Origin: a virus | Lineage: Duplodnaviria; Caudoviricetes | Virus record (IMG/VR): IMGVR_UViG_3300025389_001023 | Location: 1 to 64,000 of that record | DNA length: 64,000 bases | Strand: one strand, 5' to 3' | Shown: positions 54,134 to 63,887 of the stretch, piece by piece | Position numbering within the stretch: the stretch's first letter is position 1 | Layout: each line of letters starts with the position of its first letter | Program-made: the position numbers and the translations under genes | The notes under the pieces: generated by a model | What the model was told of the DNA's origin: nothing | Seen by the model: the letters and a program-made list of their open reading frames with translations, nothing else | The model's database searches: none

Positions 54134-55408
54134 ATGAAATTTATAGAATTATTTGAGGGTGCAACGCCCAAATTACCAGGCGCTCCTAAGGGAGTTGACA
54201 TTATGACTCCTGAGCAATTTTTAGCCAAAAGTGCGAAAGGTGAAGAACCCGGTCCTGAAGAGGATGTAGATGAGGCAACAAAACTACCTGCACCAAGTCG
54301 TGAATTTGGCGACCAAGAATTCCAAGACTATTTAAAACGTACAGTTGGTACACCTGATATTGATAAAAAGACAGGTAAGGTTAAAGTAGATAAAAAGGGT
54401 AAAGAAAAGTATGTGTCTGGTAAATTAAAAACAGACAAGTATAAACTACCATACATTCACCGTAGTAGTGCTATCAAGTATTATAGCCCTGAAGAAAAAC
54501 GCTACGACCCAGAACAAGTTAAAGATGTGCTTAAACAACGTCCTAAAAAGTTATTAAAGCAAAACGAAAAGATGAAACACAGTAACGGAGAATTAGAACA
54601 ATTCTTCAATATTGGTTTTGCCGCATTGGTAGGTGTTGCTGTAGATGAAGCTACAGATAAATTGATTATTGTTAACACATGTCCTGGTGCTGGTAGCTGT
54701 AAAATTGATTGCTTTGCAATGGGTGGTGGTAAGATTCAATATGAAGCTCCTTGGCAAAGTGATGGTAAAATATTAACATATCTATTAAACGATCCAGAAG
54801 GTTTCTTTAATCAACTAAGCGCAGAAATTGCAAAAGAAGAAAGCGATGGTAAAAAGGGTGGTTACAAGGTAAGTATTCGTTGGCACGATGCTGGTGACTT
54901 CTTTAGTCCAGAGTACATGGATTTAGCGTTCAAGTTAGCTAACAAGTTCCCTGATGTAGACTTCTATGCTTATACTAAAATGGCAGGTGCGGCATTAGGT
55001 GCTAAGCCAAAGAACTTTATTATCAACTGGAGTGAAGGTGCTCATACTAGCCAAGAGAAACAAGTTAAAGCAAAGGATCCTAACTTACAACAGACTAAGA
55101 ACAGTCGCATTGTTCCTGATGATGTATTCCAAGACTTATTGGTTAGAAATGAAAAGGGTAATTTAGAAAAAGGACCTAATGGTCAATGGCAAGTACAACC
55201 TGATAAACTACCTGAACTAAAACAACGTTTAGCAAAACAGTATAACGTTAGTGCTAATTCAATATTGAGTTATGATGAGTGGGAACAAAAAACCAATCGC
55301 GGTAAGAAAGCAACACCAGTTAAGTACAACGTTATTGTAGCACCGGGTGAGCCAGACTTATCAGCAAACTCACTAGGTGTACTAGGTACATTCTTACTAA
55401 AGCATTAA
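54134..55408 (+). CDS. Gp88-like (radical-SAM-related) phage protein
   Basis: NEKMK, TCPGAGSCKIDCFA, IRWHDAGDF and FYAYTK. Confidence 0.75.
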   Translation: MKFIELFEGATPKLPGAPKGVDIMTPEQFLAKSAKGEEPGPEEDVDEATKLPAPSREFGDQEFQDYLKRTVGTPDIDKKTGKVKVDKKGKEKYVSGKLKTDKYKLPYIHRSSAIKYYSPEEKRYDPEQVKDVLKQRPKKLLKQNEKMKHSNGELEQFFNIGFAALVGVAVDEATDKLIIVNTCPGAGSCKIDCFAMGGGKIQYEAPWQSDGKILTYLLNDPEGFFNQLSAEIAKEESDGKKGGYKVSIRWHDAGDFFSPEYMDLAFKLANKFPDVDFYAYTKMAGAALGAKPKNFIINWSEGAHTSQEKQVKAKDPNLQQTKNSRIVPDDVFQDLLVRNEKGNLEKGPNGQWQVQPDKLPELKQRLAKQYNVSANSILSYDEWEQKTNRGKKATPVKYNVIVAPGEPDLSANSLGVLGTFLLKH

Positions 55409-56235
55409 ACTTTTAGTAACTCTTCCATAGTGTAGAGATTTCTCATATAGGGCGATACATCTTTTAATACATAATAATCGATGTCGCCCTTTCTTCTTGG
55501 GCCTACTTTTGTAAGTAAATCCTTGTTAGGAATGTTATTGACTTCTCTAAACATCTTTACAATCTCACCAACGCTATAACCTACACCATGACCCAAGCAT
55601 TCAATTTGATTTGCAGGGTTTCCGATTGCTGTACGTAATGCATCACATACTTCATTAACATGAACATAGTCACGCACACATGTGCCGTCTACTGTGTCAT
55701 AATCATTACCATTGATGGTAAAATACCCTTGTTCACGTGCCTTCATTAAGTTGTACATCAATCCATCAGGGTTAGTTGGTTGATAGCCATCACTACCAAT
55801 CACGTTATAGAATCTAAAGATTGTATATGGTGTGGGTTTATGTTGTGTATAAAACTCACGTATCACATCTTCTGCCGCACGTTTGCTTACACCATATGGA
55901 CTAACACAATGTTCTGCGGCACCTGTACTTGCAAAGATAAAGTTTTTTGTTTTAATCTTATTGATTACATTCATAGTACCATTTAAGTTAGTGATGTAGT
56001 ATGTTAATGGTTGTTTTTCACTTTCACCTACATTAACCAATCCTGCTAAATGAATGACACAATCAAATTCTTCTTCGATAGCAAATTGTTTTCTAATATC
56101 AATATGATAATGATTTTTTACTGGATGCTGTGGTGCACGAAAATCTAATCCATATACCTCACAATCACTTTCTAACATTTTAGTTAGATGACTACCAATG
56201 TAACCGCTGTTACCTGTGATTAAAACCTTTTTCAT
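55405..56235 (-). CDS. galE: NAD-dependent epimerase (UDP-glucose 4-epimerase-like)
   Basis: TGNSGYIGSH, HLAG, YGVSK, RFYNV and DGTCVRDYVHV. Confidence 0.88.
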   Translation of the reverse strand: MKKVLITGNSGYIGSHLTKMLESDCEVYGLDFRAPQHPVKNHYHIDIRKQFAIEEEFDCVIHLAGLVNVGESEKQPLTYYITNLNGTMNVINKIKTKNFIFASTGAAEHCVSPYGVSKRAAEDVIREFYTQHKPTPYTIFRFYNVIGSDGYQPTNPDGLMYNLMKAREQGYFTINGNDYDTVDGTCVRDYVHVNEVCDALRTAIGNPANQIECLGHGVGYSVGEIVKMFREVNNIPNKDLLTKVGPRRKGDIDYYVLKDVSPYMRNLYTMEELLKV

Positions 56236-57569
56236 TATAATCCTTCAAATAGTGACAGACCAGTAGCCTCTTCCACGGGTTCAAAGCTAGGGTCTTTTGT
56301 TAAGTATGTGTTATCGTCTGTGTATATAATACGGAACTTATGTTTATTTGTCAATACACTACGGATATCATCAATACAAATTACTTTACGATTTAAACTT
56401 TTAATAAAGTTGTCAACGGTGATAGTAGTTTCTTCACAAATTTTTGCTGTATTGGTAGTAGACTGTTTACCATTAAAATCATTAAAGCAAACGTTCCATT
56501 TATGAAATACATCTTTTTCCAAACTAACTGAATGGTCCAGTGATCCTTTATTATACCAATCATTACTAGTTACAAACATATCATACGCACCTTTAACATC
56601 AGATGCCATAGATTTTTTGTTTGTCTCAAAGAAAAAATGTCCATCAAAGTTTTTAGTCCAACGTTGATTTTCTAAACAGAAAGTGGGTAGTTGTGTAATC
56701 TGCTCATAAAATGCCATACCATAGCTTTCAACTGTGCTAGGATTAAACGCAACTCTACAACTTGTAATGAAGTCTACTTTTTCTTTACCAATGATACTTT
56801 CTTTAATGATATAATCAACACCAATCTTTTTTAATCTGTCTTCAAATTTTTTAGCACCATTGCTATTGGTCATTACTCTTGCAGGTAAGTTGGTCTGTTC
56901 AATAAGTTCCAAGTATAATTCAGGATTCTTACCTTCTTCCCAACGACCGACAAACAATACACCTTCACGTGGTTTATTGTGTTCTTCTAATAATGATTGT
57001 TCTGTAATAGGAATAGGCAAATGATAAGCATTATCAAACTGTAATTGATTAAACTTGCTTTGTGTTCCTATAAACACATTGTCAGTTTGTAACTGTTGTC
57101 TCATTAATACATTGGTATTATACAAGAATGGATTTTTAGTATCTTTAAAAATCTGACTTTCCAAATGAGTATACGCAATGATTTGAATGCAGTCATCAAG
57201 CCCCATTGTACTTGCTACTTGTACAGTTTCATATGTGTTGCAAACAAATGCATCATACAAGTTATGTTCCAATGCCTCTACAATAGCATTTCGAAAGTTA
57301 GCCATACGCTCATAACAAAATGTATCTCCATACATAAAGATACTGCTATGGTCGGTATACTTTAATGATTCAACTGGGGCAATGATATTTGCTTTTAATG
57401 ATTTAACAAACTCAGTATTTTGTGGTTGTTTGTCTGTAATGATATCAACCTTGACACCATGACTATCCATAAGTTCACAAAAACTTCTAGCAAATTGACC
57501 AATACCACCATGTGGAATTAATGTTTGATAGCTAACTAAAAAACCAATGCGTTTACTGTACGTTCTCAT
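56235..57569 (-). CDS. GT-B glycosyltransferase (GT4-like)
   Basis: PHGGIG, LFVGRWEEGKNP and PSTVESYGMAFYE. Confidence 0.85.
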   Translation of the reverse strand: MRTYSKRIGFLVSYQTLIPHGGIGQFARSFCELMDSHGVKVDIITDKQPQNTEFVKSLKANIIAPVESLKYTDHSSIFMYGDTFCYERMANFRNAIVEALEHNLYDAFVCNTYETVQVASTMGLDDCIQIIAYTHLESQIFKDTKNPFLYNTNVLMRQQLQTDNVFIGTQSKFNQLQFDNAYHLPIPITEQSLLEEHNKPREGVLFVGRWEEGKNPELYLELIEQTNLPARVMTNSNGAKKFEDRLKKIGVDYIIKESIIGKEKVDFITSCRVAFNPSTVESYGMAFYEQITQLPTFCLENQRWTKNFDGHFFFETNKKSMASDVKGAYDMFVTSNDWYNKGSLDHSVSLEKDVFHKWNVCFNDFNGKQSTTNTAKICEETTITVDNFIKSLNRKVICIDDIRSVLTNKHKFRIIYTDDNTYLTKDPSFEPVEEATGLSLFEGL

Positions 57570-57570
57570 T

Positions 57571-57831
57571 TTAATTATATTTTATATTAAACTTATCTTT
57601 AATGCTTTTTACACAACGTTGTTTGGTTCCTTCAATCATGCTTTTATCATAGGTTGTGTATGTTAACTCTGTTACCAGTGTTTCATTTATAGCATCAATA
57701 CATTCTTTGATAAGCAATTCTGCAAAATCTTGTAATTTTTTATCACTAACATCTTCGCCATAAAAATCACCGTCATCAGCTACACCATAAAAGCCTGCTC
57801 GTTCACCTAATTGTTTAATTTTTTCATTCAT
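57571..57831 (-). CDS. Orphan member of the MNE...FAELLI..EC family
   Basis: MNEKIKQLGERAG...FAELLIKEC...IKDKFNI. Confidence 0.7.
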   Translation of the reverse strand: MNEKIKQLGERAGFYGVADDGDFYGEDVSDKKLQDFAELLIKECIDAINETLVTELTYTTYDKSMIEGTKQRCVKSIKDKFNIKYN

Positions 57832-58073
57832 TTTTTTAATTTCCATATAATATGTTCAAGTTTATCATGCCATCTATGCTCAAACAAAGGTTCAGTAAGA
57901 CCTGTATACAATGCAGTAACTTGGTAACCATACTTTAACCAAATGCGCTTACCAGATATGTCACATGTTTTTGGTAACCACGCAAATTTTAATTGAGCAC
58001 CTATATACTTATTATAAAATAAATCATCAAATGAAGCCGTTTGGTAATTAGCACCCATCATTATGTTCCCCAC
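57828..58073 (-). CDS. Hypothetical protein
   Basis: FAWLP..C..SGKRIWLK. Confidence 0.6.
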   Translation of the reverse strand: MGNIMMGANYQTASFDDLFYNKYIGAQLKFAWLPKTCDISGKRIWLKYGYQVTALYTGLTEPLFEHRWHDKLEHIIWKLKK

Positions 58074-58939
58074 TCATTCTTAAAGAGTGGTACTTGTAAT
58101 CTGTCACTATAACGCCAGCCTCGCTTCATTGCGGCAAGGGCAACAGACTTAGCATTGAGATTATAAACAGACTCAACACCACCAACAGGCATAAGGTATA
58201 CGTGACCCCTAAAACCCGACGCTCTAAATTGTTCAACTGCTTGTTCTGCATCTTTAACATCCTCTTCTGTCGCTACTACAAATTTCAAATATACGGTTCC
58301 AACTGTTTGATAATCACAAACAACTTTAGGCTTGATAGCATCTTCCCAACTTTCACCACTACCTGGTAATTTAGCACTAACACTAAATGTAATTTCTTTG
58401 TTATGTAATCTATTCAATGCAGGCTGATGCATTTCTAACCATTTAGTCTGTAAGTAGTGTTTGAATTCTGCTGTAAGTTCCTGTGTACCATTTGTCTCAA
58501 AAGTAATTTCTTTTAACTTTTGCATTTTAGGATGATTCAACAAGTCAGGATACGCACGTTGCCAGCCCAACAATGGCTCACCACCTGTGATAACTAAATG
58601 TTCTTCTTTCCACTTATTGTGTGGAAGTATCTCCATAATACGTGACACAATAGCATCACTTTCTAATACAGGACTTAAATCCTTAAAGTCAGGATGCCAA
58701 CTTGCATAACTATCACACCCTGTACTAACTAGTGGCAGTTCTTCATACTTGTTATATAAATGTGCAACTGTTGCAATATCGTTAGCCTCTGCGCTTAGTT
58801 GTCCCCTAGGCATACCGAATCCGGCACACTTAAAGTTACAACCAAACGTGCGTAAAAAGACTGAAGGTACTCCCATGTACCTTCCTTCACCTTGAATACT
58901 ATAAAATAGTTCGGCTACTTTAATTTTACTCATCTTCAT
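58061..58939 (-). CDS. queE: 7-carboxy-7-deazaguanine synthase (radical SAM)
   Basis: ELFYSIQGEG, FLRTFGCNFKC...GCDS, ITGGEP, ETNGT and RLQV. Confidence 0.92.
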   Translation of the reverse strand: MKMSKIKVAELFYSIQGEGRYMGVPSVFLRTFGCNFKCAGFGMPRGQLSAEANDIATVAHLYNKYEELPLVSTGCDSYASWHPDFKDLSPVLESDAIVSRIMEILPHNKWKEEHLVITGGEPLLGWQRAYPDLLNHPKMQKLKEITFETNGTQELTAEFKHYLQTKWLEMHQPALNRLHNKEITFSVSAKLPGSGESWEDAIKPKVVCDYQTVGTVYLKFVVATEEDVKDAEQAVEQFRASGFRGHVYLMPVGGVESVYNLNAKSVALAAMKRGWRYSDRLQVPLFKNEWGT

Positions 58940-59162
58940 CTTTCTCTAAAAATTGAGTTACCTGATCTTCTGCATCTTGTAAAAATTCTGCGTATACTTC
59001 AAAAGTAGCAATGCCATTTTTACATTTGATGTTAAATGGTATAGTACCGTTTGGTAACCAACCGGGACCTACCTCACGTTTAATTTCAAAACGTTGTAGG
59101 CTTTTTACCTTAACCATTGTTTCGTTAAATATTTGTTCTGCTGTTTTCATCATTGATTCCAA
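58926..59162 (-). CDS. Hypothetical protein
   Basis: ORF track. Confidence 0.55.
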   Translation of the reverse strand: MESMMKTAEQIFNETMVKVKSLQRFEIKREVGPGWLPNGTIPFNIKCKNGIATFEVYAEFLQDAEDQVTQFLEKDEDE

Positions 59163-59356
59163 TGTCTAATAACACCTGCTATAATAAAGCAATTTGTTGT
59201 GATATATGATAACACAATAATGGTACGAATACAAGCAATACGGTCTGATTCTTTATCCGTACTGCCTGCTTTTTCGCCCAGTGCTTTGGCCCAAATTCGC
59301 CAAATATATTTAGCCTTCGTAAGTAGCAGAATTAGCCCCGTGTTCAAATACTTCAA
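59150..59356 (-). CDS. Small membrane protein (start uncertain)
   Basis: WRIWAKALGEKA...D.IA.IRT...NCFIIAGVIRHW. Confidence 0.6.
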   Translation of the reverse strand: MKYLNTGLILLLTKAKYIWRIWAKALGEKAGSTDKESDRIACIRTIIVLSYITTNCFIIAGVIRHWNQ

Positions 59357-59837
59357 CTGATTTTATCCTTACTGTTGGATTAATTGGATAACGCATATTG
59401 CCATTTACTAGTAAGTCTGCCATTTTATCGTATGCCATTTTAGCAAACATTTCACATCCTACAGCAGGAACAATACGTAAATCACACAACGCACCGCGCT
59501 CATGTGGTTTTAATTTATCCCACTCAGGAAGTGTGCCACTACCCGGGATATTACCTTTGTTGTTCATGATTTTGAAAAAGTCTAGATGAGGATCATCTTC
59601 TGCAACAATCAATGTATGGTCAAACATATAATCTGCCCATGCTTTGAATTCTTTAAGTCCTCCAAAGTCCATACACCAGTTTTTGTCATCTAGTGTGTCG
59701 CACTCAAAAATTAATTTGATGCCTATCGAGTAACCATGCAATGTTGAGCAATGGCTATGTGTAGCACGCCATTGTCTAAAACAGCAAGATAACCCTCTAT
59801 CATTACCGTAAGTTTTTGTTGAATAAAATTTTGCCAT
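59310..59837 (-). CDS. queD: 6-carboxy-5,6,7,8-tetrahydropterin synthase
   Basis: CSTLHGY, MDFGGLK, FDH, GCEMFA and VFE.GANSA. Confidence 0.9.
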   Translation of the reverse strand: MAKFYSTKTYGNDRGLSCCFRQWRATHSHCSTLHGYSIGIKLIFECDTLDDKNWCMDFGGLKEFKAWADYMFDHTLIVAEDDPHLDFFKIMNNKGNIPGSGTLPEWDKLKPHERGALCDLRIVPAVGCEMFAKMAYDKMADLLVNGNMRYPINPTVRIKSVEVFEHGANSATYEG

Positions 59838-59840
59838 ACA

Positions 59841-59912
59841 TTTCTCCTATGTTAATTGTAGCATAGGCAGCAGAATTTGTAAAGCGGGAATGATGCCAAA
59901 AGACCGCTATAG
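59841..59912 (-). promoter_or_regulatory. Structured queD leader (candidate riboswitch / SD-sequestering hairpin) with embedded sigma70 promoter
   Basis: AGCGG/CCGCU stem, GGCAUCA:UGCUGCC pseudoknot, CCUAUG/CAUAGG hairpin over the SD; TTTACA-N17-TACAAT. Confidence 0.6.
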
Positions 59913-60341
59913 TTATTTACCTTTTTTTAAAAGTTCTTGTGCAATAACTTTTGCCCATTTTTCACAATCTTGTTCGGTAACATGAAAATCGTATTTATAT
60001 GGTGGTACAAACATTTTATTGGTATCTTCAAATCTACCTTTATTAATTGTATCTACCCAAATAGTAATATCGGCATTAAAAATTTCACGCATTTCAGGTA
60101 ATGGGCAAACAAAATCAACAATAGCAAAGTCTGATTCTAATATATCTGCCTCATTGCGTAGGCGGTTGGCTTGTCTAATACGACCTTCAATACTAAAATC
60201 CCAATCATTATATTTTTCTCTAATACGGTCTGCATTGATCCAAACACATTTAGATTGTGGATATAATTGATTGTATAATGAGTCTGCTAGTTTTGTTTTA
60301 CCGGCACCAGGTAAACCCATAATTAATATTCGTTGTGTCAT
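59913..60341 (-). CDS. cysC: Adenylylsulfate kinase-like protein
   Basis: GLPGAGKT, NADRIR, DFSIEGRIRQA, FVCP and FVPP. Confidence 0.8.
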   Translation of the reverse strand: MTQRILIMGLPGAGKTKLADSLYNQLYPQSKCVWINADRIREKYNDWDFSIEGRIRQANRLRNEADILESDFAIVDFVCPLPEMREIFNADITIWVDTINKGRFEDTNKMFVPPYKYDFHVTEQDCEKWAKVIAQELLKKGK

Positions 60342-60808
60342 TTTGGTTTTTTACTGTGTTCTGCATCATAAACACGTTTACGCAAATTAGTGCTACTAAA
60401 ACTATGGTCACGACCGTTAAACACAATCTCAATACCACGTTTCCAACATGCCTCATCACCTGTAAATTGTTTACCTTCATACTCTACACCTAAAACACGA
60501 ACATCAATTGGTAAGGTTAATAGAATGTCAATTAGGTCTTGCTCAGTTGAATACACAACAACTTCATCAACATAACGGCATGCTGCCAATTGAATTTGTC
60601 GTTCAACAATACTTTGAATAGGTTTGTTCTTAGTATCTGGTCTGTCAATAGTAGGGTCAGTTTGTAATCCTGCAATTAAATAATCACAATGATTCTTAGC
60701 GTCACTAAGCATTGCAACATGTCCTGCATGTAACATATCAAAGGTACTAAATGTAATACCTATTTTTTTACCATCTTGTTTAAGTTTACGAATGTGATTG
60801 AAAATCAT
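60338..60808 (-). CDS. tagD: Cytidylyltransferase (TagD-like)
   Basis: STFDMLHAGH, KP, YVDEV and HSFSST. Confidence 0.85.
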   Translation of the reverse strand: MIFNHIRKLKQDGKKIGITFSTFDMLHAGHVAMLSDAKNHCDYLIAGLQTDPTIDRPDTKNKPIQSIVERQIQLAACRYVDEVVVYSTEQDLIDILLTLPIDVRVLGVEYEGKQFTGDEACWKRGIEIVFNGRDHSFSSTNLRKRVYDAEHSKKPK

Positions 60809-61038
60809 TTTTTTAATATCCTTATAATTTTTTCTTGTTCCTGCTCTTTAAGCCACTGTTCTTCACCACTGTATGTAGATGACTTATTTAAGGCTTCATC
60901 AACCATCCATTTTATTTTATACAGTTCTTGTTTGCAGTCCCATGCAATATAACTATCAGTATATATATCAAGTAATTCCCCGCACATGGCTTGTACTTGA
61001 TTTGATACCTGTGGTCCCCAACGCCTCATATAACCCAT
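60805..61038 (-). CDS. Hypothetical protein
   Basis: Likely start MGYMRRW. Confidence 0.55.
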   Translation of the reverse strand: MGYMRRWGPQVSNQVQAMCGELLDIYTDSYIAWDCKQELYKIKWMVDEALNKSSTYSGEEQWLKEQEQEKIIRILKK

Positions 61039-61039
61039 A

Positions 61040-61207
61040 TTAGCCTTGCAATCTATTTTTACAATCGCAATTGCGACCTTGGTTGCAGTCTCCTGTACAA
61101 GCTGAAGTATATGTTGCGTTATACGCATTAATGAATACTGCTTTTAGTACATTAATAAAAGGATAGCTAAAATAACCTAGTGCAAAACTACAAATAAGCC
61201 ATTCCAT
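61040..61207 (-). CDS. Small membrane protein with CTGDCNQGRNCDC motif
   Basis: 55-aa ORF read manually. Confidence 0.5.
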   Translation of the reverse strand: MEWLICSFALGYFSYPFINVLKAVFINAYNATYTSACTGDCNQGRNCDCKNRLQG

Positions 61208-61209
61208 AA

Positions 61210-61887
61210 TTATTTACCCATTCGTGCAATACTTAAGAATTCACTACGTGCCGCGGCATCTGTTTTGAATCCACCACCTAAACGAACAGTAACTGTACTA
61301 CTACCTGTATCCTCAACACCACGTGACTTTACGCAATAATGTTGTGCATCAATCATTACTGCAACATCTTCAGTCTCCAGTATAAATTGGAGAGTGTGGA
61401 AGATTTGTTCGGTGAGTCGCTCTTGGATTTGAGGGCGCTTACTGAAATACTCAACAATACGGTTAATTTTTGATAATCCGAGGACTTTCTGTTTAGGCAC
61501 ATATGCCACAGTAGCGAGACCATCAATGACAACAAAGTGATGTTCGCAATTGCTTTGGACATTAACGTTGCGTTCAACGACCATTTCATTGTAACGCATC
61601 TTGTTATCGACAGTCGTACACTTTGGAAATGCATCATAATCTAATCCCCAGAAAATTTCGTTAACGTACATTTTAGCAACACGCTTGGGTGTTTCCATCA
61701 AGCTATCATCACTTAGGTCTAGACCTAATACTTGCATGATATGGCTAAAACTTTTTTCGATTTCTGCAATTTTGTCTTTACGATCCAATGCAGTTTGAAA
61801 TGTAGGAGTTTCTACTCCCATAGCTACCAAGTGCTGATGTACTTTTTGACCTAACTCAGGGTCGGTTTTCGTTTTGTTATATGACAT
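61210..61887 (-). CDS. folE: GTP cyclohydrolase I
   Basis: ETPKRVAKMY, SNCEHH, GLSKINR, RPQIQERLT and HYCVKSRG. Confidence 0.96.
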   Translation of the reverse strand: MSYNKTKTDPELGQKVHQHLVAMGVETPTFQTALDRKDKIAEIEKSFSHIMQVLGLDLSDDSLMETPKRVAKMYVNEIFWGLDYDAFPKCTTVDNKMRYNEMVVERNVNVQSNCEHHFVVIDGLATVAYVPKQKVLGLSKINRIVEYFSKRPQIQERLTEQIFHTLQFILETEDVAVMIDAQHYCVKSRGVEDTGSSTVTVRLGGGFKTDAAARSEFLSIARMGK

Positions 61888-61958
61888 ATGTATCCTTCCT
61901 TACACGGATGTTATTTTTGAAAAGTATGCAACCTTTGTGTCGCATACTTTTATTTATC
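61888..61958 (-). promoter_or_regulatory. folE leader: late promoter plus two hairpins
   Basis: GATAAATA, then AAAAGTATGCGAC-ACAAAG-GTTGCATACTTTT, then ATCC-GTGTAAGGAA-GGAT over the SD. Confidence 0.55.
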
Positions 61959-61959
61959 A

Positions 61960-62499
61960 TTATGGCTTTGTACCACTAGGAAAAGGCCAATTACTATCTA
62001 CTTCTGTTTTATCTGTTTCTTCATCAAGAAAAGGCCAGGCTGCAGGTTCATTTACTTTATCGTTAACGGTAAAAGTTGTTTCTATTGTTACTGAATCTTC
62101 TTCACCTTCAAACTCTTCACCAGTGTCTAGATTTACTAACTTAAGTGGACCTTGAAAAAAGTATTCTGTGTCATCTTGTGACCAGCCTTCTTCTTCAAGA
62201 CCTTCGTAATAGTTTTCGTCCCAAATTTCTTCAAGACGTTCTTGTTCTTCTTCGTCCATGTCATCAGGCCATTCCCACTCAGCCCAACACCCATCATCTA
62301 ATGATACCAACTCCCAATCACTATCTAACTCAAACTCATCAGGATTGTTTAAGTCAACATCAGGCATAGTGTCTGATTCTATAGTAAATGTGCCCCAGCG
62401 ATAACCTTCAGTACGAATGGCAACTTGACCATCCTTATACCAAAATGATTTCTCAATCGCAGATTTTTTATATAAAGTGGATAGTTCCCAAGTTGCCAT
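61960..62499 (-). CDS. Acidic hypothetical protein
   Basis: D/E/W-rich; two C-terminal WPF motifs. Confidence 0.7.
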   Translation of the reverse strand: MATWELSTLYKKSAIEKSFWYKDGQVAIRTEGYRWGTFTIESDTMPDVDLNNPDEFELDSDWELVSLDDGCWAEWEWPDDMDEEEQERLEEIWDENYYEGLEEEGWSQDDTEYFFQGPLKLVNLDTGEEFEGEEDSVTIETTFTVNDKVNEPAAWPFLDEETDKTEVDSNWPFPSGTKP

Positions 62500-62501
62500 G
62501 A

Positions 62502-62696
62502 TTAATTGTCCAATTCTTTACTTAGATATTCATTGATAACATCAAACAATTGTTCTTGTGAAGTACAAAGAATTTTACAATTCTTCCAATCGTTGTCATC
62601 ATCACGACCACTAAACTCAACCATAAATCCGTTATCGTAACGATTAACGGTGAATGATTCATTTACTTTTTCTAACTTGTCTAATTGATTTGCCAT
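62502..62696 (-). CDS. Hypothetical protein
   Basis: VNESFTVNRYDNGFMVE; SD AGGAG. Confidence 0.65.
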   Translation of the reverse strand: MANQLDKLEKVNESFTVNRYDNGFMVEFSGRDDDNDWKNCKILCTSQEQLFDVINEYLSKELDN

Positions 62697-62708
62697 TTCT
62701 ATCTCCTA

Positions 62709-63887
62709 TTAAAATTTGGCTTCACGTGTATACTTCCTATAATCGGTAGTCATGCGTAACATGTCTTCACCTTTCCCTTCAAGTATATCACAGATTCTAT
62801 CGATAGTGCTATCATTACGGGCACTAATCTTACCCATGTTAGGGTGTGGTTTACGAATAAGTTTTTCTAACTTACTTAATGCATCTTCTAAAGACCAGGG
62901 TACATAAAGACGCTCATTGTCATTAGCAAAAGTTTCGGGAAAACTTCTATAAGCAGGATAAAGAACATTACACCCAAGAGTATCTGCCTCCGATGCTGTG
63001 TTACTGACCCAGTCCTGTAAAGCGCAATTAAACAGCAGGCGAGTGTTGTTAAGAAGATTGTAATAATCATTTTTTTCTAGGTCCTCATAGATAGTTAATA
63101 GTCCACGTTCTTGCAAACTTCTGGTACGTGCCATATAACTATCATTGTTAGATTTTAGTTTACTACCACTAAAAATTGCAAACTCAAGTTTTTGTCCAGG
63201 ATGACGTTCGTGCCATAATTCAATCAAGTCCATATAGAAGTCAGGTTGTTTTTCCTGATCCCAACGTGCGGCAAAACCCACACGAAATGTGCGCTCATTA
63301 AATGGTCTTAATGGACCTTCTACACGACTGCGAACTTCATCTTTACCAAATGCCAATCCGCTGATATTGTAAATTGGAGACCTCCAACCTGCAATTTTCA
63401 TGTGCATTACCATTTCTTCGTTAGTAGCAAGTACACCGTCAACAAATGAATCAACCATTTTTTCATAGTGACCCATGAATTCACTCATACCCCATACATG
63501 TACAAAATCATCCGGATCGATTGATTGAGCAAGACAGCGGACATATATCCTAGGGCGCATATTAGCATCAATCTGATTAAGTATGTAAGGAAGACTTTCG
63601 ATTCCTGGCTGAAACATGTCTTCAAAATATATAACATCATCACTTGATAGTTCCCCTGCTTTCATCATTTTGATTAGATTCATTAGTTGCGACATACCGT
63701 AGTATGTACGACCATGTGCATCTAATACTTGCCCAGTAACGATTGCTTGGTCATTACTTAGTGTTTCGCCAGGGACAATAACATAGTCAATATCCCTACG
63801 TTCAAATACAGTACGATTCCACTCTTGTAATTGTAGAGTGTATCGTGCTTTATAAGGCTCAAGGCCCATGTAATATAATTTACGCAT
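62709..63887 (-). CDS. GT-B glycosyltransferase
   Basis: FAARWDQEKQP, KNDYY..L, NCALQDWVSNTASEA and YPAYRSFPE. Confidence 0.82.
   Translation of the reverse strand: MRKLYYMGLEPYKARYTLQLQEWNRTVFERRDIDYVIVPGETLSNDQAIVTGQVLDAHGRTYYGMSQLMNLIKMMKAGELSSDDVIYFEDMFQPGIESLPYILNQIDANMRPRIYVRCLAQSIDPDDFVHVWGMSEFMGHYEKMVDSFVDGVLATNEEMVMHMKIAGWRSPIYNISGLAFGKDEVRSRVEGPLRPFNERTFRVGFAARWDQEKQPDFYMDLIELWHERHPGQKLEFAIFSGSKLKSNNDSYMARTRSLQERGLLTIYEDLEKNDYYNLLNNTRLLFNCALQDWVSNTASEADTLGCNVLYPAYRSFPETFANDNERLYVPWSLEDALSKLEKLIRKPHPNMGKISARNDSTIDRICDILEGKGEDMLRMTTDYRKYTREAKF

Follow-up and report, generated by a model that had tools for sequence, protein, structure and literature searches.

The SAM-II, SAM-V, guanidine-III and fluoride riboswitches are compact pseudoknot aptamers in which a loop lies in a helix groove, and many of them act on translation, while the leader of phage T4 gene 32 carries a 5'-terminal H-type pseudoknot that controls translation of the downstream gene and serves as the nucleus for cooperative gp32 binding along an unstructured stretch, and that is not known to be tied to the ribosome-binding site by alternative pairing. 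The preQ1-I aptamer comprises about 34 nucleotides (nt) and has a short second helix (P2), as against about 50 nt in the element described here. The portion of PMC11625349 consulted describes preQ1-I (RF00522) as an H-type pseudoknot with a first helix (P1) of 5 base pairs (bp) closed by an invariant G-C pair, a strictly conserved C (UC in type I) immediately ahead of the 3' strand of P1, and an A-rich third loop (L3) that ends in a conserved C, situated upstream of queuosine or 7-deazaguanine genes; preQ1-II and preQ1-III (RF01054, RF02680) are likewise described there as pseudoknotted leaders of queuosine-related genes that control translation through access to the Shine-Dalgarno (SD) sequence. 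The element that we compare with these RNAs is found in a 64,000-nt stretch of DNA from a lake virus (Duplodnaviria; Caudoviricetes; positions 1 to 64,000 of IMG/VR record IMGVR_UViG_3300025389_001023), here called the window, where it occupies the minus strand of the 75-nt spacer 59912-59838 between a P-loop kinase-like open reading frame (ORF), 59913-60341, and the ORF of a 175-amino-acid (aa) PTPS/QueD protein, 59310-59837. That this is a real, conserved and gene-specific structured leader RNA we regard as practically certain, and the reading that we favour by a small degree is that of a cis-acting, ON-type pseudoknot leader of queD that is stabilised by a ligand. Its parts in window coordinates are as follows.

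59310..59837, minus strand: queD (PTPS family; PF01242, E-value 3.6e-15), 175 aa, the gene taken as regulated
59904..59908, minus strand: 5' strand of P1, AGCGG, forming 5 of 5 pairs with 59883-59887
59898..59903, minus strand: first loop (L1), UCUUUU, with near-invariant C and U at positions 2-3
59891..59897, minus strand: 5' strand of P2, GGCAUCA, forming 6 of 7 pairs with 59866-59872, with a U59893/C59870 mismatch
59888..59890, minus strand: second loop (L2), UUC, in which C59888 is the invariant C ahead of the P1 3' strand and a candidate specificity base
59883..59887, minus strand: 3' strand of P1, CCGCU, pairing with AGCGG 59908-59904
59873..59882, minus strand: L3, UUACAAAUUC, 10 nt, A-rich
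59866..59872, minus strand: 3' strand of P2, UGCUGCC, its last two bases common to the SD hairpin
59846..59867, minus strand: SD-sequestering hairpin CCUAUG(CUACAAUUAA)CAUAGG, calculated at -5.8 kcal/mol
59844..59848, minus strand: SD sequence AGGAG, 6 nt ahead of the ATG of queD (59837-59835)

The conserved element (59908-59861 in the window) is an H-type pseudoknot in which P1 and P2 cross and both covary, P1 having 5 bp and P2 having 7 bp in the window and up to 10 bp in relatives. In a MAFFT alignment of 129 distinct cores (A1) P1 is 99.5% paired with both-sided changes in four of its five pairs, and P2 is 79.1% paired with such changes in eight of nine; the structure as a whole is 86.8% paired versus 73.4% in shuffled alignments, none of 500 of which reaches the observed value, and its covariation score of 0.312 compares with 0.121 after shuffling and with 0.05-0.07 when the 3' partners are slid by one to three columns. 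A further alignment of 101 sequences (A4) was made to a model holding P1 alone, so that P2 was not fitted, and here 88.2% of the cells are paired versus 72.2% when shuffled, with a covariation score of 0.404 versus 0.142 (0.05-0.09 when slid). P1 is thus paired at 99.0-99.5% across the 101-129 distinct sequences of A4 and A1, and it is spelled AGCGG/CCGCU, UGCGG/CCGCA, AGAGG/CCUCU, AGUGG/CCACU, AGUCG/CGACU, AUCGG/CCGAU or ACCGG/CCGGU, with the closing G-C pair kept in 128 of 129 (A1) and 100 of 101 (A4) sequences. The preliminary description of this locus had noted the 5-bp P1, the loop pairing at six of seven positions, the SD hairpin sharing CC with the pseudoknot strand and a GTAAATA box, all of which are indeed present on the minus strand; the pseudoknot that it proposed proves to be under selection with compensatory changes in both helices, and covariation among homologous leaders, whose absence it had named as refuting, was looked for and found.

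When the register of P2 is anchored on UCA and UGC in 161 distinct cores, its A-U pair is kept in 158 and replaced by G-C in 3, the neighbouring pair is C-G without exception, every one of the 161 shows the U/C mismatch, and pairs x1 to x5 are formed in 91, 84, 90, 75 and 70% of cores with up to four Watson-Crick types each; in a further 45 distinct cores, sampled independently, the same five are paired in 37, 42, 44, 42 and 40. The loops are also conserved, since L1 has C at position 2 and U at position 3 in 159 of 160 distinct cores each, after a variable first base, and L2 invariably ends in C (160 of 160), reading UC in 115, CC in 17, AC in 13, UUC in 9, CUC in 4 and UCC in 2. L3, which would lie in the groove beside P1, measures 10 nt in all parsed cores and has A at positions 3, 5 and 7 and UC at 9-10, an invariance that is partly circular, since the parse anchor and the scan patterns required those bases.

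The element is closely tied to one kind of gene. The QueD protein of the window, searched against viral contigs, gave 354 relatives, of which 80 loci were kept, and their upstream regions hold the same element with differing bases at paired positions. A covariance model (R1), built from the 129 distinct cores with only P1 as structure, has a match immediately ahead of queD in 75 of these 80 loci; among 80 loci whose PTPS is of a type only 36% identical to that of the window it has one in 77, the three others being L212 and L228, which have almost no upstream DNA, and L278, which has no match. Searching in the opposite direction, with a pattern composed of P1b, L3 and UGC and made without reference to any protein, gave 120 listed matches out of an estimated 1100 or so viral stretches in the collection, and the first downstream ORF is a Pfam PTPS in 115 of the 119 that were scanned; a second pattern excluding the commonest P1 class listed 120 loci, and each of the 72 among them in which P1 is complementary and L1 carries its CU has PTPS behind it. 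Among the remaining 48, in which P1 complementarity or CU is lacking, 47 have no PTPS within 700 nt, and the exception, L394, is a truncated locus. The element is moreover found once per genome: the window has a single R1 match of 60.6 bits (next best 8.7), the 114.5-kb record from which it comes holds one match and, in queD, its sole PTPS gene, and each of five genomes of 228-519 kb (66-100% complete) has one match with one adjoining downstream PTPS gene. The control of queD assumed in the preliminary description is in good agreement with this specificity. A generic multi-copy leader or promoter cassette, considered when the downstream N-termini looked unrelated, was rejected, since Pfam showed all to be PTPS and there is one copy per genome.

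The PTPS proteins behind the motif are 32-58% identical to that of the window, and in L111 (679-728), L127 and L131 an aptamer core identical to the one in the window precedes a PTPS only 37% identical to the QueD of the window, so that the leader seems, on its sequence, to pass as a module from one gene variant to another. Across 185,579 species genomes of cellular organisms there was one pattern match, on a 5.9-kb metagenome-bin contig beside a large ORF that on inspection reads as tail-fibre-like, and this lone match is probably phage DNA. Among cultured phages blastn of two leaders gave chance-level pieces only, the best QueD match is 49.7% identical, and neither phage Iggy nor RHph_N17 has room for a leader or an R1 match anywhere in its record; as judged from these searches the element is confined to uncultured phages.

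A few copies of the motif stand before other reading frames. In L050 (1345-1396), and in the same way in L056, a second full copy follows a perfect TATAAATA and precedes a 312-aa radical-SAM-like ORF, just past a phosphoribosyltransferase gene and 1.6 kb ahead of the queD copy, which suggests a small regulon. The motif of L140 (677-728), again after a phosphoribosyltransferase gene, is followed by an ORF (757-1419, at least 221 aa) with a DLGCGWN methyltransferase-like motif and not by PTPS, and in L128 a cupin ORF comes first and is followed by an ORF that on inspection reads like PTPS of the L088 type. No family was assigned to the downstream ORF in L179 (278-328) and L189, where only a very short reading frame comes after motif and SD hairpin, ahead of another TAAATA box and an unrelated partial ORF of 72 aa, and where the motif may be a decayed copy. 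L153 falls outside the 119 scanned matches, its ORF call being 8 aa; after 701-719 the usual start region GAGAUGGC reads GAGAUUGC, and the locus may represent a broken queD or a sequencing error.

Downstream of P1 the element runs into structures that hide the start of queD. In the window C59867 and C59866 are the last two bases of the pseudoknot strand and at the same time the first two of the hairpin with arms CCUAUG 59867-59862 and CAUAGG 59851-59846, of which the 3' arm covers the AGG of the SD. Three platform forms, types A, B and C, can be distinguished, and in all three P2b shares 2-6 nt with a hairpin on the SD or the start codon. In type A, to which the window belongs, P2b runs with a 2-nt overlap into CCUAUG...CAUAGG covering the SD; these arms occur in 70 of 77 leaders, and variants that preserve pairing are CCUAUA/UAUAGG (L130, L188), CUCUAUU/AAUAGAG (L165) and CCUAUG/UAUAGG (L043). 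In type B P2 has 9-10 positions and its last six bases form, according to RNAalifold, the 5' arm of UGUC(A/G)UC/GAUGGC(A/G), which buries the start codon; here x6-y6 is U-A in 14 and C-G in 23 leaders, while the same y6 pairs with the U of AUG as A-U in 21 or G-U in 29. In type C the start codon is buried by G(U/C)CAUUG/CAAUGGC with a 3-nt overlap and a covarying inner stem, and RNAalifold predicts P2 plus a shortened hairpin. The hiding of the SD proposed in the preliminary description is thereby extended, since the P2 3' strand competes with a hairpin on either the SD or the start codon.

Blocking L3 and P2b weakens the predicted platform structure by about 5-7 kcal/mol in all three types, the minimum free energy (MFE) changing from -8.4 to -3.4 kcal/mol in type A, from -10.3 to -5.7 in type B and from -11.0 to -4.0 in type C, and at the alignment level no conserved alternative structure was found after such blocking. 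A second sequestering pairing in type B, CUUGCUAC/GCAA, came from one constrained fold and was discarded, being unsupported at the alignment level. In the window the calculated energies are near balance, with -4.8 kcal/mol for P1, -5.8 for the SD hairpin, -7.1 for the P2 duplex and -8.9 for the duplex between the tail and the translation initiation region (TIR). Since P2 and the hairpin are mutually exclusive, a folded pseudoknot should expose the ribosome-binding site and so switch queD on at the level of translation, and this predicted ON direction follows from the modelled competition. We consider it probable that the leader acts through competition between P2 and the TIR hairpin.

Two promoter-like signals accompany the element in the window.

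59914..59920, minus strand: late-promoter-like box GTAAATA (predicted), the TAAATA ending 5 nt ahead of P1
59855..59883, minus strand: embedded sigma70-like promoter TTTACA-N17-TACAAT, with 10 of 12 matches and a TG extension in the promoter scan

The GTAAATA box overlaps the 3' end, GGT AAA TAA with the stop codon, of the upstream ORF 59913-60341. Of 77 distinct type A leaders, 67 carry a box of the TAAATA/TAAGTA type no more than 26 nt ahead of P1, and judging by this placement the box may act as a promoter. The embedded element, lying over L3, P2b and the hairpin loop, is found in type A alone, where TANNNT follows (T/A)T(T/A)ACA by 17-18 nt in 75 of 77 leaders, 73 of these 75 with the TG extension, and where ACA at positions 4-6 of the hexamer equivalent to -35 is kept in 73 of 77, versus 2 of 55 in type B and 2 of 21 in type C. 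A short transcript from this internal promoter is predicted to be unstructured (0.0 kcal/mol). An upstream promoter of the TTGACN-16/17-TATAAT kind is seen in 26 of 54 type B and 3 of 77 type A leaders, and in type C its -10 box ends 7 nt ahead of P1 in 16 of 20 leaders, so that the element would start the transcript. The sigma70 promoter inside the hairpin, offered in the preliminary description as an alternative to the riboswitch, is accordingly conserved in type A, and this pattern supports a putative internal promoter that co-exists with the RNA element and does not replace it. An intrinsic terminator of the upstream gene was rejected, since P1 goes unflagged in the terminator scan and L3, which begins with AAUAUAAA or UUAUAAA in most relatives, is free of a U run in most types.

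The likeness to preQ1-I suggested previously holds only as a resemblance. Topology, the 5-bp P1, its closing G-C, the invariant C before the P1 3' strand, mostly as UC, the A-rich L3 ending in C and the site upstream of a 7-deazaguanine-type gene are shared with class I as characterised in the consulted part of PMC11625349. Membership of the family did not hold up, however, as neither RF00522 nor any other relevant Rfam 15 model matches window 59600-60100 (501 nt) or 59855-59915 (61 nt) at E <= 10, and no Rfam model matches loci L001, L005, L023, L042 and L076 at E <= 1. Furthermore, the element has a P2 of 7-10 bp with a fixed U/C mismatch and a longer L1 with a variable first base before CU, its SD lies outside P2 (at least 18 nt downstream of it in the window), it is found essentially only in viral contigs, and its platform implies ON whereas the preQ1 switches in the part of PMC11625349 consulted turn genes off. 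Because of the failed family model, the longer P2 with its mismatch, the SD outside P2 and the ON reading we have not filed the element as a preQ1-I member; we regard it instead as a new class of pseudoknot leader, which may work like preQ1-I and may descend from it, and may in that case be an expanded offshoot of preQ1-I with inverted logic. PreQ1-II and preQ1-III differ in their HLout topology, larger size and association with queT transporter genes, and their models do not match the element, and the SAM-II, SAM-V, guanidine-III and fluoride riboswitches have unrelated consensus sequences and gene contexts and Rfam models that likewise do not match. From the gene 32 leader the present element differs by its competitor hairpin, which covaries, and by an invariant core resembling a pocket.

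No published description of the element was found in the literature searched, a part of the PMC10690425 supplement lying outside the search, and the terms queD, PTPS, pyruvoyl, queuosine and deazaguanine are absent from the main texts of PMC10690425 and of a 2026 bioRxiv noncoding-map preprint; the motif may be among the more than 10,000 candidates of PMC10690425, unnamed. Two traits generally looked for in a riboswitch are found here, namely a conserved structured leader specific to the genes of one pathway, the exceptions being a radical-SAM-like, a methyltransferase-like and a cupin gene in such loci, and an expression platform with mutually exclusive structures in all three types.

In the mechanism that we propose the 5' part of the leader, about 50 nt, would fold as an H-type pseudoknot with its 5-bp P1, P2, A-rich L3 and the invariant C before the P1 3' strand, and a small molecule presenting a guanine-like face would stabilise it. 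The 3'-terminal part of the P2 strand would double as the 5' arm of the hairpin on the SD (in the window) or on the start codon (in the other subtypes), so that pseudoknot folding would block this hairpin, free the ribosome-binding site and turn on translation of queD. In the window subtype short transcripts from the internal promoter would escape control, whereas longer ones, from the late-like box or from read-through, would carry the switch.

As to the ligand, positions 55405-63887 of the window hold a gene set of 7-deazaguanine type, with FolE (61210-61887), QueD and a QueE-like radical SAM protein (58061-58939), lying among sugar-handling genes and interleaved with a cytidylyltransferase (60338-60808), the P-loop kinase-like ORF already mentioned, an epimerase (55405-56235) and a glycosyltransferase-like ORF (56235-57569), and the 114.5-kb record, with a completeness of about 30%, yielded no Pfam match to QueC or TGT. 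According to the part of PMC10516641 consulted, phage phiST has FolE, QueD and QueE without QueC, and its DNA carries 2'-deoxy-7-deazaguanine. All PTPS behind the motif have the signature CxxxHG(Y/H) and are QueD-like rather than DpdL-like, and this gene context makes ligands with a 2-amino-4-oxo face plausible. 7-Deazaguanines, guanine or guanosine triphosphate (GTP), and the pterin substrate of QueD are speculative candidates, and a substrate or precursor would, equally speculatively, fit ON logic best. That the ligand is a small molecule at all is, judged from the sequences, an evenly balanced proposition.

We would only tentatively go further and regard the element as the first virus-only riboswitch class, a sensor of a guanine-like face that is ON for QueD, and in some phages for a radical-SAM or methyltransferase protein, and that tunes synthesis of the base replacing guanine in DNA; candidate ligands for such a class are 7-deazaguanine, 7-carboxy-7-deazaguanine, preQ0, guanine, GTP and dihydroneopterin triphosphate. 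Phages would then carry their own metabolite sensors for DNA hypermodification pathways, and the element would be a new small aptamer, possibly for a new ligand from deazapurine or pterin chemistry, and a natural case in which a long P2 and ON logic are combined with pocket features like those of preQ1-I. It has no match in Rfam 15 although the narrow sequence pattern alone is estimated at about 1100 viral stretches. The RNA in addition marks QueD genes in uncultured jumbo phages and offers a compact part for synthetic gene control, and its three interchangeable platforms, together with a promoter nested in the aptamer, make it a good case for the co-evolution of RNA and DNA signals.

A number of observations nevertheless weigh against a ligand-stabilised ON switch. 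Ligand sensing, the identity of the ligand, the ON direction and the use of the promoters are what we infer and not what we observe. The direction depends on thermodynamic models that ignore pseudoknot energies, and according to the consulted part of PMC11625349 translation can be attenuated by a preQ1-I pseudoknot even where the aptamer does not include the SD, so that an OFF switch may apply instead. A product-type ligand would make the feedback positive, an unusual arrangement for a biosynthetic gene. In type A the hairpin shares only 2 nt with P2b and is nearly invariant, and there is consequently little covariation in it. Taken as a single copy the window leader folds no better than chance, the nested MFE of 101 nt being -16.6 kcal/mol against -16.79 +/- 2.94 in shuffles (z = 0.06), and promoter-like sites are not enriched in the region (6 observed, 10.2 expected from shuffles); as none of the leader features exceeds chance in the single sequence, their significance comes from the comparison with relatives. 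There, cell counts overstate the number of independent events, many sequences being close relatives from similar samples, and 7 of the 101 rows of A4, that of the window among them, have a 3-nt L2, are shifted by one column in P2a and were scored as unpaired, so that true pairing agreement is somewhat higher. Five of the loci found with the window protein (L021, L066, L067, L068 and L070) have no R1 match, their queD abutting the preceding ORF, and with the canonical 141-aa QueD a match was found in only 10 of 80 loci, the motif being absent from 70; together with the rates of 75 and 77 of 80 given above this ties the element to a particular set of phages and not to all phage queD.

Structure, gene link and platform overlap would be explained equally well by a translational operator, in which a phage protein, be it QueD regulating its own gene or a dedicated regulator, would bind the pseudoknot and decide between P2 and hairpin without any small molecule. 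The T4 gene 32 leader uses a 5' H-type pseudoknot for autogenous control. T-fold enzymes bind purines and pterins (PMC10516641, in the part consulted). We nonetheless consider a protein operator rather unlikely, since the unpaired core bases are invariant even though the associated PTPS proteins are as little as 32-58% identical to that of the window, since the same element precedes radical-SAM-like and methyltransferase-like genes, and since the invariant C, the closing G-C and the A-rich positions of L3 mirror a small-molecule pocket as described in the consulted part of PMC11625349. A device that is independent of any ligand, protecting the 5' end of the messenger RNA or setting a fixed level of translation, with pseudoknot and hairpin in long RNAs and a free SD in short ones, is in agreement with the internal promoter-like element in 75 of 77 type A leaders, with the unstructured short transcript and with a motif that starts at the predicted 5' end. 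It is however made improbable by types B and C, in which there is no internal promoter but the pseudoknot persists together with a start-codon hairpin that covaries and excludes it; that two alternative structures are both selected points to switching, and the invariant unpaired bases and U/C mismatch exceed what a stabiliser needs.

A true but highly divergent preQ1-I member that binds preQ1 or preQ0 and switches queD OFF would account for the shared topology, the 5-bp P1, the closing G-C, the UC, AC or CC preceding the 3' strand of P1, the A-rich L3 with its terminal C and the que context, all of them class I traits in the consulted part of PMC11625349, but is very improbable in view of the missing RF00522 match, the P2 of 7-10 bp with a fixed mismatch, the longer L1, the SD outside P2 and the platform that reads ON; preQ0 and preQ1 may, moreover, not be made, as no QueC was detected in the record. 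Finally, the notion that only DNA-level signals are present, a promoter and a terminator of the upstream gene, with incidental RNA pairings, stems from the promoter-like hexamers that overlap L3, P2b and the hairpin loop in type A. It is contradicted by the compensatory changes in two helices, by the want of an internal promoter in types B and C, by a terminator scan that does not flag P1 and by an L3 without a U run in most types, and we give it hardly any credence. The ligand-stabilised leader of queD is the reading that we retain, with the slight preference stated at the outset.

Two minor observations concern sequences outside the core. In L033 (2297-2322), L035, L038 and L039 weak partial R1 matches of 21.6 bits, covering model positions 3-29 and hence the P1 hairpin only, are found some 640 nt upstream of the full motif. 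The sequence TATAAATA, which precedes the second motif copy in L050, occurs four times in the window (1992, 28732, 32174 and 59992), always on the minus strand, versus 11.3 +/- 3.3 expected, and this depletion and strand bias hint at a functional signal in this phage.

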